DNA from: Candidatus Bathyarchaeia archaeon
GTDB lineage: Archaea; Thermoproteota; CALKCG01; B24
Assembly (NCBI GenBank): GCA_038870975.1
Contig: JAVZJD010000001.1
Span: forward strand, 448,001-512,000
Direction: 5' to 3'
Length of the DNA: 64,000 nucleotides
Both the position numbers and the translations under genes were made by a program. Shown one piece after another: positions 3,510-57,972 of this stretch (position 1 is the stretch's first letter; each line of letters starts with the position of its first letter). The notes under the pieces are model-generated. The model was not told the origin of the DNA. It was given only the letters and a program-made list of their open reading frames with translations, and did not search any database.

Positions 3510-4199
3510 CTAATCACATATTAACGTTCCTATTTTAACACCTTTAACGGCTAATTCAATATTCTCAGGTTTAAAACCGTTTAAAACTATGGTTTTGATT
3601 TTATGTCTAGCTATTAATCTGGCCGCTTTTGGATCTATTATCGTTTTTAAACCTGCTTCATAATGTACACGTCCAAACATATTTTTAAGCTCTTTGAAGC
3701 TTAGATTGTCGATTTTAAAGGCGTCGGGATATCGTGACGGGTCTTTGTTATAGATGCCGTCTCTATTGGTAGCTTTAATCAGCAGATTAAAGCCAAGTTT
3801 AATTGCTGCAAGAACTGCTACAGTATCAGTAGTCATACCTGGCTTAATGCCACCCATAACTACGATGCTGTGTTTTTTAAACAGTTTAGAGACTTCTCCT
3901 ATTCTCTTAGGGATTGTCACGGGAGTTGTTGGTCTTAGTGCTTCAGCTAGCAGTTGGGCGATTACTCGTGATGCTTGTATGGCTATTCTATCTTGACTTT
4001 CTTGGGACATGTTCATCATCTTTGCATTTTCTATCAGTATTCTAGCCAGTTCTCCTCCCCCGGTTACGACGAGTAGTTTAAAACCGTTTTGAGAAAGTTT
4101 ACCTAAAATTTTAGAGTATTCTAGTATAAGAAGTGGATTTAACGGAGAGGCTATGACAGAACCGCCTATTCTAAGCACTATTTTCATTGGAAACACCAC
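3510..4199 (-). CDS. pyrH: UMP kinase (archaeal type)
   Basis: IVLRIGGSV, VTGGG, PGMTTDTVA, DGIYNKDP, IIDPKAA. Confidence 0.9.
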   Translation of the reverse strand: MVFPMKIVLRIGGSVIASPLNPLLILEYSKILGKLSQNGFKLLVVTGGGELARILIENAKMMNMSQESQDRIAIQASRVIAQLLAEALRPTTPVTIPKRIGEVSKLFKKHSIVVMGGIKPGMTTDTVAVLAAIKLGFNLLIKATNRDGIYNKDPSRYPDAFKIDNLSFKELKNMFGRVHYEAGLKTIIDPKAARLIARHKIKTIVLNGFKPENIELAVKGVKIGTLICD

Positions 4200-4261
4200 C
4201 TAAATTTATTTAAACTGACTTCGTCATAGTTTAAAATACTATCTATTGAGAGGAGAGATTT

Positions 4262-6532
4262 TTGAGCAGAATTAGAAGGGGCTTTTCAAATCAAGTTTTT
4301 CAGGTTCTTTCTTCACCGATTAGGTTTGAAGTCCTTAGACTTCTAAGGCTAAACCGTACTTTAACCTATAGTGAAATTATGGATATGCTAGGTTTAGAGC
4401 CAGCTAAACATGCTGGTAAGTTTGCATATCACCTCAGAAGCCTTGTAAAGGCTAGACTTATTGAAAAGACGGATGACGGTAAGACTTATCGGCTTACAGA
4501 CCTTGGGGTTAGAGTTTTAGAGTTCGCTCAAGAGCTTAATGAATATCTTATGAAGAAAGCGGGTAAACTTCTGGTTAGAAGTTCTAGAATGGCTATAGAA
4601 GAGTTTGACAGGCTTAGAATAGTGAATAGTCTTATTAAAGAAGCGCAGGTTCCTTTAGACTTGGCCGAATCTATTTCGCTTGAAGTTGAAAGAAGACTTG
4701 TAAACCTTCAGGTTAAATATTTAACTGCTCCACTTATACGAGAAATAGTTAATGCAATTCTCATAGAGAAGGGGCTTGAGGAGTATAGGCATAGACTTAC
4801 AAGACTCGGCCTTCCAGTTTACGACGTCGTTAAAACATTTGAAAAAGCTAGTACGATGAAAATGCACGTCGAAGAAGTTAGAGAAATAGCTGGTGAAGCA
4901 GTTTTAAGAGAATATACTCTTTTAAACGTTCTACCTAGAGACGTTGCCGACGCATACTTAAGTGGAGACATACATTTAGAACTCCCAGGGTCTTGGATAC
5001 TTAGACCCGACGTCATCCAACATGACATACGGCTGATTCTGACGGGTAAGTTTCCAAACATGCCCAGTAAAAGCCCAACGACGTTAACTTCAGCATTAAA
5101 CAGGCTTAGGGTTGCCGCCTACAACAGCAGTTTTGAGGTTAATTTAGACCAGGGATTTGACATGTTCAACGTCTTCTTAGCGCCTTTCACCAGAGGAAGA
5201 AGGCTTGTGGAAGTTAAACGGGCGCTTCAAGTATTCATAGAATCTATGAGAATCTCCTCAAATCTCAACGTCAACTTTGGATTAGAAGTGGGTTTAAATC
5301 GGAAGATTGAAAACCTTAAAACTATACCTGGTGGAGAAGTTTATGGAGACTATCGAGATGAAGTTTTAACGTTTACACAAGCTCTTATAGATGTCTTAAA
5401 GAAGGAGTATTCGAGGAGCCCACTCTACAATTTCAATTTGACAATCAAGATTAGAGAATGGCCTCTGAAAGACGAGTGGATAGAAGTAATGAAGAGCATA
5501 CACGATGCTGCGAAGTTTGGCATACCCATTGTAATAGCTAATCTAACGGATGTAGATGATAACACCAGCTTCTCAAGCTATGGATTTAGATTTGAGCCTC
5601 TTTCAGACTGGGAAGTGGATACGCTAGCAGTACCTATGATTGTAGACGTTTCCATAAACATGCCTAGGCTCGCTCAAATATCTAAAGGAAGCGATGAACG
5701 CCTCTGGGAGAATTTACAGAAGATAATGGACAAGGCTATTGAAGCAATACATATTAGGAGGGGGGCTTTGGAGAGCCGGATTAAAGAGGGGCTTCTACCG
5801 AATATTTCTCAACCAGACGATCCATATGTGAGGTTTAAAGCCATGTTTTCAGCTCTTGGACTATTTGGACTTAATGAAGCCACTGTTCTACACACAGGCT
5901 CAGACCTTACGAGCACTACATCACAAGCTGCTATGCTTAGAGTTTTAAGGCGTATACGCGCATACTTAGATGCAAGTAGAGATAGAATTGGATTGACGAG
6001 TATATGCGGTGAAGAGGGCGCATCTAGGCTTGTAAATCTAGACCTCAATAACTACGGTAAATCCATCTTAAACAGTCAAGGTTTCAGGAGAGAGCCATAC
6101 TACACCGATGTATGCGTAGTGCCTTTAGAATACGGCATACCGCTTTCTAAAAGGCTTGAAATAGAGGAGAAAGTGGGTTCTATAATGAATTATGGAACTC
6201 TTCCAGTCATAGAGGTGAATTCGAACGAAGTTGATGGTGAAACTCTCTTTAAGACGACATCATACATAGTGTCCAAGTATAAGCAACTCAGATGCTTCAC
6301 ATACTCGACCTTCACAACGTACTGTAAACGATGCTCTAAACTGTTTGAAGGCTATTGGGATAGATGCCCGAAGTGTAGCAACATAGCTACCGTAGTTCAA
6401 TACGGCAGAACTCCAACCCTAGTTAAACCAATATACAGGTGGACTTCTGAAAAAAGAGCAAATATGTTTCTAAGAAAAGCTTACGGTGTTAAAGACATCG
6501 AATCCTTAACCCCTATTTTAAGCCCGGCTTAG
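4262..6532 (+). CDS. ArsR-type winged HTH + ATP-cone + class III ribonucleotide reductase (NrdD)-like protein, catalytic residues apparently lost
   Basis: aa 1-100 wHTH ([13 protein letters not shown]...[10 protein letters not shown]...YRLT); ATP cone (VRSS..IEEFD..I...[11 protein letters not shown]); NrdD body ([45 protein letters not shown]); lacks PxCLQH, MGCR and RITGY motifs. Confidence 0.85.
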
Positions 6533-6993
6533 AATTGATTTATAATATCTTCTCTAGTCATAACTATTCTGCAGTAGTGGCATCTAAGCCTTAGAGGTTC
6601 TACGCTTTCAACGATAAACGTAGGTTGAACGGGTTCTCCGCTGTTTGTTATACAGGATGCATTCGCACATTTGATCACGCCCTTTATGATTTTTGGAAGT
6701 TTAACTTTATTCTTTTCAACTACCTCATAGTTCCGTATAATGTTTATGGTGGCGTTTGGAGCTATTAGAGCTATTTTATGGACTTCATCTTCTCTAAGCT
6801 CTCGATTCTCAACCTTCACAATATCTTTTCTGCCGAGCTTTTGACTTGGGACATTCATAAGAATACTTATAATATTGCCCTCTTTACCGGTTAATCCTAT
6901 TATCCTGAGAACCGCTAAAGCATATCCAGCAGTTATGTGGTCTATGACGGTTCCATCTTCAATCTTGCTAACTCTCAGCTCTTTTTCAACCAT
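6529..6993 (-). CDS. pyrI: Aspartate carbamoyltransferase regulatory subunit
   Basis: [26 protein letters not shown], Zn site CANASC...CHYC. Confidence 0.97.
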
Positions 6994-9794: not shown

Positions 9795-10235
9795 ATGTAT
9801 TATGGAGGACTTACTATGAGCGTGAAACAGCAGAGGTTTAAGATTTCTCCGACTGGCAGAGGCGCAATATTTAAACTAAAAAGGTGGTTCTACTTAGCGT
9901 TTTATACAAAAAACGTACCTGAGGATATTAAGGAGCAGAATCGAAAAGTGTGGCTTGAGCTTTCAAGAAGACTCATAGAAGAAATGAATAAGCGAGGTGC
10001 CTCAGAAAAACCTACGAGAATAACTTTAGAATACGAAGCCAGTCCGAACAACGAGTTTAAACCGATATCTGTAGCTGTTGAAGTAATGGAGATGAAGCCT
10101 GTAGAAAGCTTCAAAATTTCTTTCAGAGAAGGAGCGGTAGAAGAAAGAGAGAAGTTGAAGGCTCAACTCGCTGAAATACTTAGAAAAGCCAGAGAGCTGG
10201 GTATAAGCCCGGAAAACCTCATAGAGAAAAAGTAG
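9795..10235 (+). CDS. Hypothetical protein, possible ThermoDBP-related (DUF2258-like) single-stranded nucleic-acid-binding protein with C-terminal coiled coil
   Basis: Pattern TG..KLKRWF..ELSRRLIEEM..G..RITLEY and a helical C-terminus resembles ThermoDBP-RP; start may be 9816. Confidence 0.4.
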   Translation: MYYGGLTMSVKQQRFKISPTGRGAIFKLKRWFYLAFYTKNVPEDIKEQNRKVWLELSRRLIEEMNKRGASEKPTRITLEYEASPNNEFKPISVAVEVMEMKPVESFKISFREGAVEEREKLKAQLAEILRKARELGISPENLIEKK

Positions 10236-10276: not shown

Positions 10277-13200
10277 TTAAGCGTAGTCTATAAGCTTTTT
10301 CCCAGTTTTCTTCATCCAGTCTTCTATTGGCTGTTTAAATTTCTCTTCGAACGCAGTCCTATGGATTGAATTGAACGTACAGAAGGATATTATTTTTCCA
10401 TCTGGAGTTGCATAGTGTATGCCACATCTATTCACTCTATCTAAGTCTAGATTCCATACGTCTTGGAAGTGCATTATCCCAACCATTACTACATTATACA
10501 TAAGTCTCCCTAGGGCTTCATAGCTCCCTTTAGTTATAATGTCTTTGAGGAGGTTTCTGATGAGCTCGCTCTTTACCATCGGTAGAAGCTTAAGTGCTTC
10601 TAATTTGGCTCTTCTACTATGACCTCCAACCCCTAGGTAGTACATCCCCCAGAATACTTGGGCAAAGTTATCAACGTCTACAAGCTCAGTTATAGGTGTG
10701 AAAGACCCATCTTCTTTAGCCACTAGGAACGTGGCTGCACCGCAGTGGGGATGTAGCGTGAACTCTGGATACGTTCTATTCTTGACTACTTCCATCCCCT
10801 TGGCAATAGGTAGGGGCCAGTTTACAGGCCTCCAGCTCCATTTTGAGACTGCTCCATTAGTCTGCTCTTCGATGAGTTTTACGGCGTCTGGTATTGTTAT
10901 CCTCATCTTCCTCATTTCCTCTTTCCTAGCTCTACCTGCCATCGATATGGGCTGTATGTTTACACATCGGATTACGTCTCTATTGTTAATGGCATATCTT
11001 ACTATATCTCCCAAGTCGCCATCGTTAACACCCTTGGCAAGAGTAACCACTAATACTATAGACTTATGTCCAATCTTCCTAGCGTTTTCAATAACTCTGT
11101 TCTTAACGTCGACAAGTCCACCTCTGCCTCTAAGCTTCAGGTATATCTCCTCCCTCAATCCGTCGAATTGTAAATATATCGTATCCATACCAGCGTCCAG
11201 CAACCGACTGTAATAGTCCAAGTCTTCAGCAAGCCTAATTCCGTTAGTATTAACCTCTACATGTCTAATACCAGCCCGTTTAGCTTCTCTAACAAGGTCG
11301 GGAAGGTCGTTTCGAAGCGTAGGTTCTCCTCCGCTGAACTGTAGAGCATTCGCAGCCCACGGTCTGCTAGACCTGAAAAGTTTAATCATTCCGACTATCT
11401 GCTCATACGTTGGCTCGTAGACGTAGTTTACAGCACCCGCGTAGGCGAAGCATATAGGGCATGCCATATTGCAATTTGAGACGTAGATGAGGCCGTTTGC
11501 TGCAAATAAGTGGTTTTTATCTACTGTTATATCATAAACGTACTCGTCTTTTGAGGCAACTACCTCAAGCATCTTAACCTCGTCTAAGAAGAAGTCTTCA
11601 GACGAATATCTCCAAGCTATCTGAACAATACTTTTACATTTTTCACACAGCTCAAGATCGCGTAAACGGCTAAGAATCTTCCTTAAAGTTGTTTTTGTTG
11701 TGTTTCTCTTTCCCGTTAAAACCTTGGAGAGATAACTTGGGTCTTCTGGATATAGCGTTACCCTACTAAGCCTATGATGATTAATTACTTCAGCCAAGAG
11801 TTTTATACAAATCCTGGGGGCAATCTCTCGTCTAGATTTCCCAATTTTTCTCACACGTCCTTCAACAGCCAACTGTTTAAGTTTCTCAAACTTCTTGGGG
11901 TGATTGCTTCCAATAACCTTCACGAATGTAGATACGTCTTTAAACCCTGAAATCACAACAACATAGTAACTTGACTTTGAGAAACCACTTCCCTGCCTCT
12001 CATGCATAGAGGCGAGGATTCCACATCTCCTTAAGAGCTGAACAATTCTTACAGCCCTCTTTCTACTAGATGTAACATAGTACACTGAGTTCGAAGCTAA
12101 GCTTACCGCTCCATCGCCATCAAAATATCCCCTTAAAAACGCAGTTATACATTTATCAGGTAGCTTAAATATCTCCTTTAACTCTCCTTCGATTACAACC
12201 TTCTCAATCAGATCATAAACCAATAAATTGTTAAATGATAGCCTTAAACAGCCCCTTCCATCTGTGTAAACATGACATTTTGTACCTGGAAACAAAGCCT
12301 CAACAATATGTTTCGCTTTCTTTACTAGCTCTGGTTCTGTACTATGGAAGTTAGTCGTGTATACCCCACGGCTTCTACTAGTAGATAGAGACCCATCTGA
12401 AGCTATAAGCCCTATAAGGTATGCTAAATCTTCGTCAAAATACTTTGCCTTTAGTTCGACCGTTTTCTTACGCCAAGAAACCTTTTCAATATGAGTTAGA
12501 GAGAACTCCTGATCAATCCCAAGTTTCTCACATAGTCTTTTGAAATCTCTAAAGTTTATTCCGACGCTTAAGTCGTAAAGGTTCCAGTATTTAAGTTGTA
12601 ATTGACTTATGGCCCTTCTTAGAGACCCGTATGCTTCCCTGGCTTTACGGCGTATTAGCTCCATAAGCACATCATCTGGATAAACGTAAAGCCTATAATC
12701 GTCTATCAACTCTAAGACTGGTAGGTTTTTAACATTTACGTTTATCCTAGCAGGTGCATATATAAGGTCTCCCACCCTCAGCTGATCAGCTCTGACAAGT
12801 TGAGCCCCATATTCACCATCAATCAATATCTCATGGTCGGGAGTTACTTTAAGCTCAACTCCCGAAACCGTACAGATTCTTACTAAGCTGTTCGGAGCCT
12901 TCAACCTATGGACAGCTATGACATCAGGATACGTAGGCTTAGGTGGATTGCAACTTAATACACGTATTGGTTTAGCGATTATCCCAGAACCGCTTCCATC
13001 TAAGGGAAGGTTCTCATCCACAAATCTTCCTATTTCCACGATAGAACCATCCTCGAGGATAAGCTCACAGTCGTATGTCACACATCTATTGGTGACGTCT
13101 ATTATGCCTAGTATTGTGTGCGTTTTATGCTGGGGGCATATCCCACAGTCGTAGGGACAACCTCTATCTATTTGAGAATGGGGGTTTTCAAGACCACTTC

Positions 13201-13408
13201 CTATATATTTTGCCGTATTCCAGTTTTTCTCAAACCACTTATAGTATTCTGCATCTCCCCAGTAGATGTCTTCGAATTTTCCGTGTTCTGGACATGTTTT
13301 CTCCAAGTATATGACGTTGTTTTCTTCGTAGACCCTCATTGGTACTCTTCTGAAGCACAGTGGGCATATGCTCACCGACCATTTTTCAAAAGGTCTTCCG
13401 TTTGACAT
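10277..13408 (-). CDS. tes: Tetraether lipid synthase Tes (GDGT-MAS, MJ0619-like radical SAM enzyme), intein-containing precursor
   Basis: N-terminal CPLC..CPEH, GCPYDCGICPQH, DVTNR|CNMACPICF, FSGGEPT, NTNG, YLQFDG, HPHCG, MHFQD, RCGIHY, FCTFN; spliced length 506 aa. Confidence 0.88.
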   Translation of the reverse strand: MSNGRPFEKWSVSICPLCFRRVPMRVYEENNVIYLEKTCPEHGKFEDIYWGDAEYYKWFEKNWNTAKYIGSGLENPHSQIDRGCPYDCGICPQHKTHTILGIIDVTNRCVTYDCELILEDGSIVEIGRFVDENLPLDGSGSGIIAKPIRVLSCNPPKPTYPDVIAVHRLKAPNSLVRICTVSGVELKVTPDHEILIDGEYGAQLVRADQLRVGDLIYAPARINVNVKNLPVLELIDDYRLYVYPDDVLMELIRRKAREAYGSLRRAISQLQLKYWNLYDLSVGINFRDFKRLCEKLGIDQEFSLTHIEKVSWRKKTVELKAKYFDEDLAYLIGLIASDGSLSTSRSRGVYTTNFHSTEPELVKKAKHIVEALFPGTKCHVYTDGRGCLRLSFNNLLVYDLIEKVVIEGELKEIFKLPDKCITAFLRGYFDGDGAVSLASNSVYYVTSSRKRAVRIVQLLRRCGILASMHERQGSGFSKSSYYVVVISGFKDVSTFVKVIGSNHPKKFEKLKQLAVEGRVRKIGKSRREIAPRICIKLLAEVINHHRLSRVTLYPEDPSYLSKVLTGKRNTTKTTLRKILSRLRDLELCEKCKSIVQIAWRYSSEDFFLDEVKMLEVVASKDEYVYDITVDKNHLFAANGLIYVSNCNMACPICFAYAGAVNYVYEPTYEQIVGMIKLFRSSRPWAANALQFSGGEPTLRNDLPDLVREAKRAGIRHVEVNTNGIRLAEDLDYYSRLLDAGMDTIYLQFDGLREEIYLKLRGRGGLVDVKNRVIENARKIGHKSIVLVVTLAKGVNDGDLGDIVRYAINNRDVIRCVNIQPISMAGRARKEEMRKMRITIPDAVKLIEEQTNGAVSKWSWRPVNWPLPIAKGMEVVKNRTYPEFTLHPHCGAATFLVAKEDGSFTPITELVDVDNFAQVFWGMYYLGVGGHSRRAKLEALKLLPMVKSELIRNLLKDIITKGSYEALGRLMYNVVMVGIMHFQDVWNLDLDRVNRCGIHYATPDGKIISFCTFNSIHRTAFEEKFKQPIEDWMKKTGKKLIDYA
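11474..13084 (-). mobile_element. Intein with LAGLIDADG homing endonuclease (537 aa) inside tes
   Basis: Starts CVTYD (Cys1), block B TPDHEI, LAGLIDADG motifs LIGLIASDG and FLRGYFDGDG, block F VYDITV, ends VSN before extein Cys+1. Confidence 0.95.
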
Positions 13409-53104: not shown

Positions 53105-53121
53105 ACCAGATTCTCTTTCAA

Positions 53122-56200
<3,079 letters not shown>

Positions 56201-56217
56201 TCTACTCGAGAACCCAG

Positions 56218-56250
56218 CGACCGCTACGTGTAGACAGCCTATACGTAGCC
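56218..56250 (-). other. 5' arm of the 23S pre-rRNA processing stem (BHB)
   Basis: Complementary to 53073-53104. Confidence 0.9.
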
Positions 56251-56335
56251 TCATAGCGTTCAAGATAAATACGCTCAGCTCTTAGCCTAGAAACCGGGTT
56301 TCTAGGCTGCATTGGGGATTGGGGCTTGGGAAGAT

Positions 56336-57972
<1,637 letters not shown>

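Follow-up and report, generated by a model that had tools for sequence, protein, structure and literature searches.

The pseudo-RNR gene and its neighbours

The window analysed here is the whole 64,000-nucleotide stretch of a Bathyarchaeia genome (G000; sampled families of Thermoproteota carry f-numbers, such as f1, f6 and f15), and the gene of interest lies on its plus strand at 4262-6532, where an open reading frame with a TTG start and no internal stops encodes a protein of 756 amino acids. The open reading frame, Pfam matches, structure and dN/dS together describe a winged helix-turn-helix (wHTH) domain joined to an ATP-cone and an inactive class III ribonucleotide reductase (RNR), NrdD, and we refer to it as the pseudo-RNR gene; all of its features below are on the plus strand. 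The head, residues 10-87 (4289-4522), matches Pfam DUF7347 and the ArsR-type HTH, and the family profile also matches the winged-helix structures of ArsR, HlyU and CadC. A predicted recognition helix at residues 50-58 (4409-4435) is marked by conservation, with G52, F54, Y56, H57 and L58 at 98-100% among 147 family members, and by the logic of the wHTH fold it would be the part that reads bases. The ATP-cone and linker that follow, residues 104-186 (4571-4819), are the most conserved part of the protein; the Pfam cone match at 105-175 scored 25.6 bits, just below the 25.8 cut-off, and cleared it in a further search.

The remainder of the protein is recognizably an RNR. Pfam NRDD matches residues 198-741 (E 3.7e-51), and the ten-stranded class III barrel (4853-6313) is followed by a zinc ribbon formed by C688, C691, C702 and C705 (6323-6376), whose four cysteines are present in 99% of the 147 members and in about 74 of 118 of the most diverse relatives. 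An AlphaFold model (pLDDT 86.3) likewise contains the barrel and ribbon, and its top Foldseek matches are all class III RNR structures (E 1e-24 to 1e-14), while the TIGR02487 NrdD score, 167.7, is about half of the 326 cut-off. A search of the PDB with the single sequence gave no match, whereas profile and fold searches did, and when residues 10-190 were modelled as a complex of two copies the score was 0.02, which carries no weight here. A reading made earlier from the sequence alone had described an intact frame with wHTH, ATP-cone, NrdD body and zinc ribbon, and frame, Pfam and model agree with it.

On the minus strand, divergent from the pseudo-RNR gene, is pyrH (3510-4199; UMP kinase, TIGR02076), a neighbour only within this genome's taxonomic order, and the two genes share a 62-bp promoter region (4200-4261). 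An alignment of five genus members shows two conserved TATA-like tracts there; in the same five, no conserved operator was found between the tracts, nor was a small palindrome within 4200-4261 found to be conserved in the genus. Downstream, pyrI (6529-6993, minus strand; Pfam and neighbourhood) is convergent and overlaps the gene by 4 bp, so that both flanks are as the sequence-only reading had them. Elsewhere in the window, a gene for the tetraether lipid synthase Tes contains an intein (10277-13408, minus strand), a 146-aa open reading frame between tmcA and tes (9795-10235, plus strand) has no Pfam or NCBIfam match, and the 16S and 23S rRNA genes occupy 53119-57972 on the minus strand; at 1637 bases, the 16S match is longer than its model of 1478 positions and may hold an insertion.

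Loss of catalytic and ligand-binding residues

The positions on which class III chemistry turns carry other residues in this protein. V251 (5012-5014) stands in place of the strand-A cysteine (Cys125 in Thermotoga maritima), a residue found in 95% of 83 NrdDs and in none of the 147 pseudo-RNR members, and T719 (6416-6418) replaces the glycyl-radical glycine, the motif around which is present in 82 of 83 active NrdDs and again in none of the 147; both positions were also placed by profile against the T. maritima and P. copri enzymes. F442 (5585-5587) occupies the position of the finger-loop thiyl cysteine, the one before Arg in a large alignment. The finger loop aligns poorly between the pseudo-RNR and NrdD proteins, but the exact register of F442 is irrelevant because residues 1-581 contain no cysteine at all. 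Two apparent glycyl-motif matches among further relatives fall outside the glycyl loop, and the Nitrosopumilaceae members stop at the zinc ribbon and lack that loop altogether. Judged by alignment, then, every radical-chemistry residue is gone, as had been proposed, and where cysteine and glycine were sought at the catalytic positions, V251, F442 and T719 were found.

Loss extends to the sites that would hold nucleotides within the barrel. In T. maritima NrdD, a His-Asp motif for the substrate triphosphate and a phosphate-binding helix cap have been described (PMC4493059). Here E240-L241 (4979-4984) takes the place of His-Asp, and across the family the histidine, present in 95% of active NrdDs, is outside the three commonest residues; residues 582-585 (6005-6016) replace the PAES cap, in which P and E are at 99% and 100% in NrdD versus 44% and 24% in the pseudo-RNR family. 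The H240, G295, PAES, N616, H274, Q320 and Q323 positions are all degenerate, the substrate motif and helix being taken from PMC4493059 and the remaining ligand-site positions assigned by conservation and position, and the same is true of the strand-B glycines and the effector-region His and Gln positions that are 90-95% conserved in NrdD. The barrel keeps its structural motifs, as a scaffold, but has lost its ligand-binding residues.

Could the protein nevertheless be an enzyme, either as an RNR that obtains its radical in some other way or through a new, non-radical chemistry? Databases do label family members as anaerobic RNR (others are labelled ArsR regulator), and the finger-loop cysteine is kept in 14 of 147 members and a glycine at the radical position in 10 of 147. 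However, no member has both, the strand-A cysteine is absent from all, and the alignment contains no new invariant polar cluster that would replace the lost substrate-binding residues. The gene is also retained in aerobic ammonia oxidizers, and G000 itself has working RNRs. These comprise an active NrdD in which every catalytic motif is present, encoded between a glutaredoxin-like gene and nrdG, and, at another place, a class II NrdJ; with nrdDG and nrdJ available, the pseudo-RNR protein is not needed as an enzyme, and we regard retained activity as very improbable. The earlier reading had pointed to the lack of an activase gene beside the pseudo-RNR gene and had suggested looking for active nrdD and nrdG elsewhere, which is where both are. 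The active NrdD of this genome (L005:5984-9277; G000:C1:213983-217276) carries a 364-aa intein directly before its finger-loop Cys-Cys pair, and inteins also interrupt nrdD or nrdJ in several relatives, in open frames of up to 2826 aa.

Distribution, selection and origin

Searched with a head-plus-cone profile (E below 1e-50), about 240 of 401 Thermoproteota genomes show the family, mostly as a single copy, and eight of the sampled families show no member. Among the matches listed, the relatives of the window's own protein are Bathyarchaeia; named organisms with a member include Nitrosopumilus, Nitrosarchaeum, Nitrosotenuis, Nitrosocosmicus, Methanosuratincola, Culexarchaeum and Bathyarchaeum tardum. 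A library reduced at 50% identity has 208 matching clusters at E below 1e-30, a number that may include active NrdDs picked up only through their cone, and viral contigs searched with the single query gave no relatives. The members vary in their outer parts: one lies inside an open frame of 1093 aa that is much extended at its N-terminus (L346:1650-4931, G125), and some from Nitrosopumilus (L311, L313, L314, L315) begin with a long acidic Asp/Leu repeat ahead of the winged helix. G000 has another DUF7347 head, fused to what by eye is a heterodisulfide-reductase-like flavoprotein in a hydrogenase cluster (L006:2541-5018; G000:C1:752540-755017), a second fusion of a winged helix to an enzyme.

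That the gene might be a decaying, pseudogene-like duplicate is a thought invited by the long branches of the barrel. Selection data refute it, leaving its probability negligible: dN/dS within the genus is 0.06-0.16 (about 0.09), and in several archaeal classes the gene is undamaged. Regional pN/pS values are lowest in the cone (0.028), followed by the winged helix (0.063), and rise to as much as 0.25 in the barrel. Neutral evolution of this copy among relatives that keep the catalytic residues, the outcome that would have undone the original proposal, is therefore not what these values and the family-wide absence of the glycyl motif describe.

In a barrel tree, 47 pseudo-RNR members fall on one side of a branch and 83 active NrdDs on the other (SH-aLRT 99), a single grouping obtained by a quick method with long branches and no outside root. 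The cone and linker are close to those of one archaeal NrdD clade, with which the family has a VR(T/S)S cone in common, and the family therefore appears to have been built from an old duplicate of that archaeal stock. The family is real, old and conserved, and is neither active NrdD nor NrdR; no published description of it was found in a literature search that reached few subscription papers.

Association with RNR genes of different classes

Among 80 Bathyarchaeia loci, nrdD lies directly downstream of the pseudo-RNR gene in 17, pyrB is nearby in 41, pyrI in 29 and pyrH in 4. A common order is regulator, nrdD (with or without a preceding glutaredoxin gene, grx), then convergent pyrB and pyrI, and the pyrI of the window is a remnant of this wider arrangement. 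The adjoining nrdD genes come from different, distant clades of the barrel tree. In other lineages the partner is nrdJ, which lies downstream of the pseudo-RNR gene in 4 of 4 f6 loci and, on the same strand, in 20 of 20 Nitrosopumilaceae, as well as in f56 and f58. Since f6 and Nitrososphaeria are separate branches of the barrel tree, at least two origins of the link to class II RNR are probable. Tandem duplication could have left the gene beside nrdD, but it does not explain the repeated adjacency to nrdJ, and the genomic link is to RNR genes of several classes.

These data also bear on a role at the protein level, in which the pseudo-RNR protein would pair as an inactive subunit with active NrdD or tether RNR to DNA. 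The whole barrel and zinc ribbon are retained, and 28 of 30 Bathyarchaeia tested carry both the pseudo-RNR gene and an NrdD over the cut-off, all of which would suit such a partnership. Yet five near-complete Nitrosopumilaceae genomes have the pseudo-RNR gene and no NrdD over the cut-off, the searched genomes of f13, f18, f56 and f58 are alike in this respect, and the partner NrdDs, where they exist, belong to several distant clades. The idea of an inactive partner, which the sequence-only reading had offered as its second choice, is weakened to the point that we think it improbable.

Candidate promoter elements

Upstream of nrdJ in 20 of 20 Nitrosopumilaceae, which are close kin rather than independent samples, lies the palindrome TGTCAA-N5-TTGACA, 91-104 bp before the start codon. 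Wherever a TATA box could be placed, the palindrome is mostly 46-48 or 55-57 bp from it, two spacing classes that are one helical turn apart, and leave-one-out scores of 7.8-25.2 bits compare with a shuffle 95th percentile of 7.7. The palindrome was not found upstream of the regulator's own gene in the 20 genomes (best 6.8 bits). Candidates for a wider Nitrosopumilus regulon were rejected, as two recurring pattern matches fall in coding sequence and one-mismatch pattern counts are near those of a reversed control.

Bathyarchaeia have a different candidate, a 28-bp element with a TACA-N6-TATA-CA core and a 12-bp period. Its model was trained on nrdD promoters that adjoin the regulator gene, and in 21 of 23 of these the element abuts the TATA box. 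The 99th percentile of the controls is 8.1 bits; held-out nrdD promoters of f1, f19 and f2 scored 11-20 bits, with 14-18 in the family of G000, 13-20 in f19 and 11-13 in f2, whose nrdD belongs to a different clade, and the same nrdD-derived model gave 9.4-12.3 bits for f6 nrdJ promoters. It places the grx-nrdD promoter of G000 5th of 1788. The element is weak or absent in f3, f4, f26, f45, f47 and f10 and upstream of most non-adjacent nrdJ genes, that of G000 included; of 120 promoters of the pseudo-RNR genes themselves, one scores 10 or more, and among 26 nrdD promoters from genomes without the pseudo-RNR gene, two score 9.9 and 12. Being AT-rich and TATA-like, it could be promoter architecture. 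The Nitrosopumilaceae and Bathyarchaeia elements differ despite a nearly identical recognition helix, each model finds the other's sites poorly, and no one motif could be made to cover every lineage.

A link of the gene to pyrH and UTP finds no support: pyrH is beside the gene in so few loci, and no upstream region of pyrH (0/12), pyrB (0/53) or pyrI (0/47) reaches 10 bits. The only shared pyrB "motif" proved by its codon pattern to be pyrI coding sequence, and pyrH is probably no target of the regulator. A broader form of the same idea holds that the protein is a regulator whose main targets lie in pyrimidine synthesis, replication or the cell cycle, the RNR link being ancestral synteny. For it speak the frequency of pyrB and pyrI, commoner at these loci than nrdD, and the four G000 promoters that outscore nrdD; against it, pyrB is convergent and therefore shares no promoter with the gene, and to the empty pyr upstream regions is added the nrdJ adjacency that duplication leaves unexplained. 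A 15.1-bit element lies against the TATA box upstream of a 349-aa gene that is trpD-like by eye (G000:C1:764409-765458, minus strand), and the pyrE promoter of G000 scores 12.7 bits; the two are possibly extra targets, or chance.

One sampled family adds to this argument. NrdR is rare in archaea (PMC9110341); it is present in 24 of 401 Thermoproteota genomes and absent from 377, G000 (no TIGR00244 match) among them, and among the sampled families the bacterial type is confined to Bathyarchaeia family f15 (24 of 25 genomes). In the f15 genomes examined, nrdR is directly before nrdD-nrdG (e.g., G061:C3:106033-108554, L169), and NrdR-box-like sites occur in 9 of 11 nrdR-led operons, to which the box search was limited; motif discovery in regulator-linked promoters gave elements different from NrdR boxes. 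The Bathyarchaeia element reaches at most 1.4 bits in the 11 operons led by the imported nrdR, a loss that would fit a hand-over of nrdD control. Family f15 nevertheless keeps the pseudo-RNR gene in 24 of 25 genomes; in one genome (G061:C4:69489-71656), a pseudo-RNR gene is split by stops. Retention beside an NrdR that leads nrdD means at least one more target or role, and it is the third point in favour of main targets other than RNR genes, a reading that on all the evidence we still consider unlikely.

Proposed role

With the barrel's substrate and specificity sites lost and the cone and recognition helix near invariant, the ATP-cone alone is most likely the sensor. The cone is more conserved in this family than in active enzymes: R106, E113, F115, K/R119, E127, R160, E161, R176 and R181 are at 99-100% (E113 at 99%, K/R119 at 100%). 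Against ligand binding, the usual phosphate-binding KR pair has become (T/S)S, as in the sister NrdD clade. Mapped by motif spacing, E113 and R119 correspond to E56 and K62 of NrdR, which touch the nucleotide (PMC9110341). We infer from these residues an adenine-nucleotide sensor rather than a general dNTP or UTP sensor, so that of the nucleotide sensing first proposed, the cone stands as the likely sensor and the wider range of ligands is not favoured.

Taken together, selection, family-wide catalytic loss, neighbourhood and promoter elements argue for a pseudo-enzyme reused as a nucleotide-sensing, DNA-binding regulator, as first suggested, with RNR genes rather than pyrH or pyrI as its likely targets. 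We consider it likely that the pseudo-RNR protein is an ATP/dATP-sensing transcription regulator of RNR genes, NrdR-like in its working while not being NrdR. We also lean, with somewhat less assurance, towards a fuller statement: that this is the RNR regulator of Bathyarchaeia, ammonia-oxidizing archaea and Methanomethylicia, that it reads dATP/ATP through its inherited cone, that it has stayed with its target through a change of RNR from class III to class II, and that it binds TGTCAA-N5-TTGACA in the ammonia oxidizers.

Mechanistically, barrel and zinc ribbon would keep the dimer or tetramer scaffold of NrdD, and ATP or dATP in the cone would move the attached winged helices or change the oligomer. 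There is precedent for such a switch, as nucleotides move NrdD cones and switch NrdR assembly; in P. copri NrdD, ATP and dATP rearrange paired cones and shift the dimer-tetramer balance (PMC11226230), and winged helices attached to such cones would presumably inherit that behaviour. One nucleotide state would then bind the nrd promoter through the putative DNA-binding head, tying RNR expression to the dATP/ATP ratio. For G000, the grx-nrdD-nrdG operon (from G000:C1:213724) is the likely target, and overlap of the element there with a TATA-like tract would fit repression. Activation or looping would suit the Nitrosopumilaceae palindrome, which is placed 46-48 or 55-57 bp ahead of the TATA box.

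We found no published account of RNR gene control in these archaeal lineages, again in a search reaching few subscription papers. The family supplies a candidate protein, a candidate ligand and a defined 17-21-bp candidate site in cultured ammonia oxidizers, which makes the question of RNR control directly testable. If the proposal is true, the family would offer a clear example of an enzyme that has come to regulate its own genes. Annotations also need correcting, as aerobic Nitrosopumilaceae are at present assigned an anaerobic RNR that is unable to function.

Comparison with known systems

NrdR would be the nearest functional parallel. Both proteins join an ATP-cone to a DNA-binding domain, both are linked to RNR genes of different classes, the candidate sites in RNR promoters are palindromic and helix-phased, and the cone residues matching E56 and K62 are conserved, though the KR pair is replaced. 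In contrast, the pseudo-RNR head is an ArsR-type winged helix rather than an N-terminal zinc ribbon, the protein is about 750 aa long with a whole dead RNR barrel as opposed to 150 aa, it has no TIGR00244 match, motif discovery in its linked promoters gave elements other than NrdR boxes, and in one family (f15) it co-exists with true NrdR.

With class III NrdD (PF13597, TIGR02487; T. maritima 4COI, P. copri 8P23) it has in common the fold, the type of cone, the barrel motifs and the zinc ribbon, the closest stock being the archaeal clade whose cone carries VR(T/S)S; it differs in lacking the radical glycine motif and strand-A cysteine, usually the finger-loop cysteine too, in its degenerate substrate and specificity sites, and in the extra winged helix. 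To ArsR/SmtB-type regulators (HlyU, CadC; DUF7347) it is joined by the winged-helix head, but its score against ArsR/SmtB NF033788 is 32.2 bits for a cut-off of 55, its head has no cysteine for metal or redox sensing, and it would sense through an ATP-cone on an enzyme scaffold.

Finally, the ROK repressors Mlc and NagC and yeast Gal3 are pseudoenzyme-derived regulators in which the fold of a pathway enzyme has been reused as sensor or scaffold. Those proteins keep the ligand pocket; in the pseudo-RNR protein it is the allosteric cone that has been kept, the catalytic pocket having degenerated.
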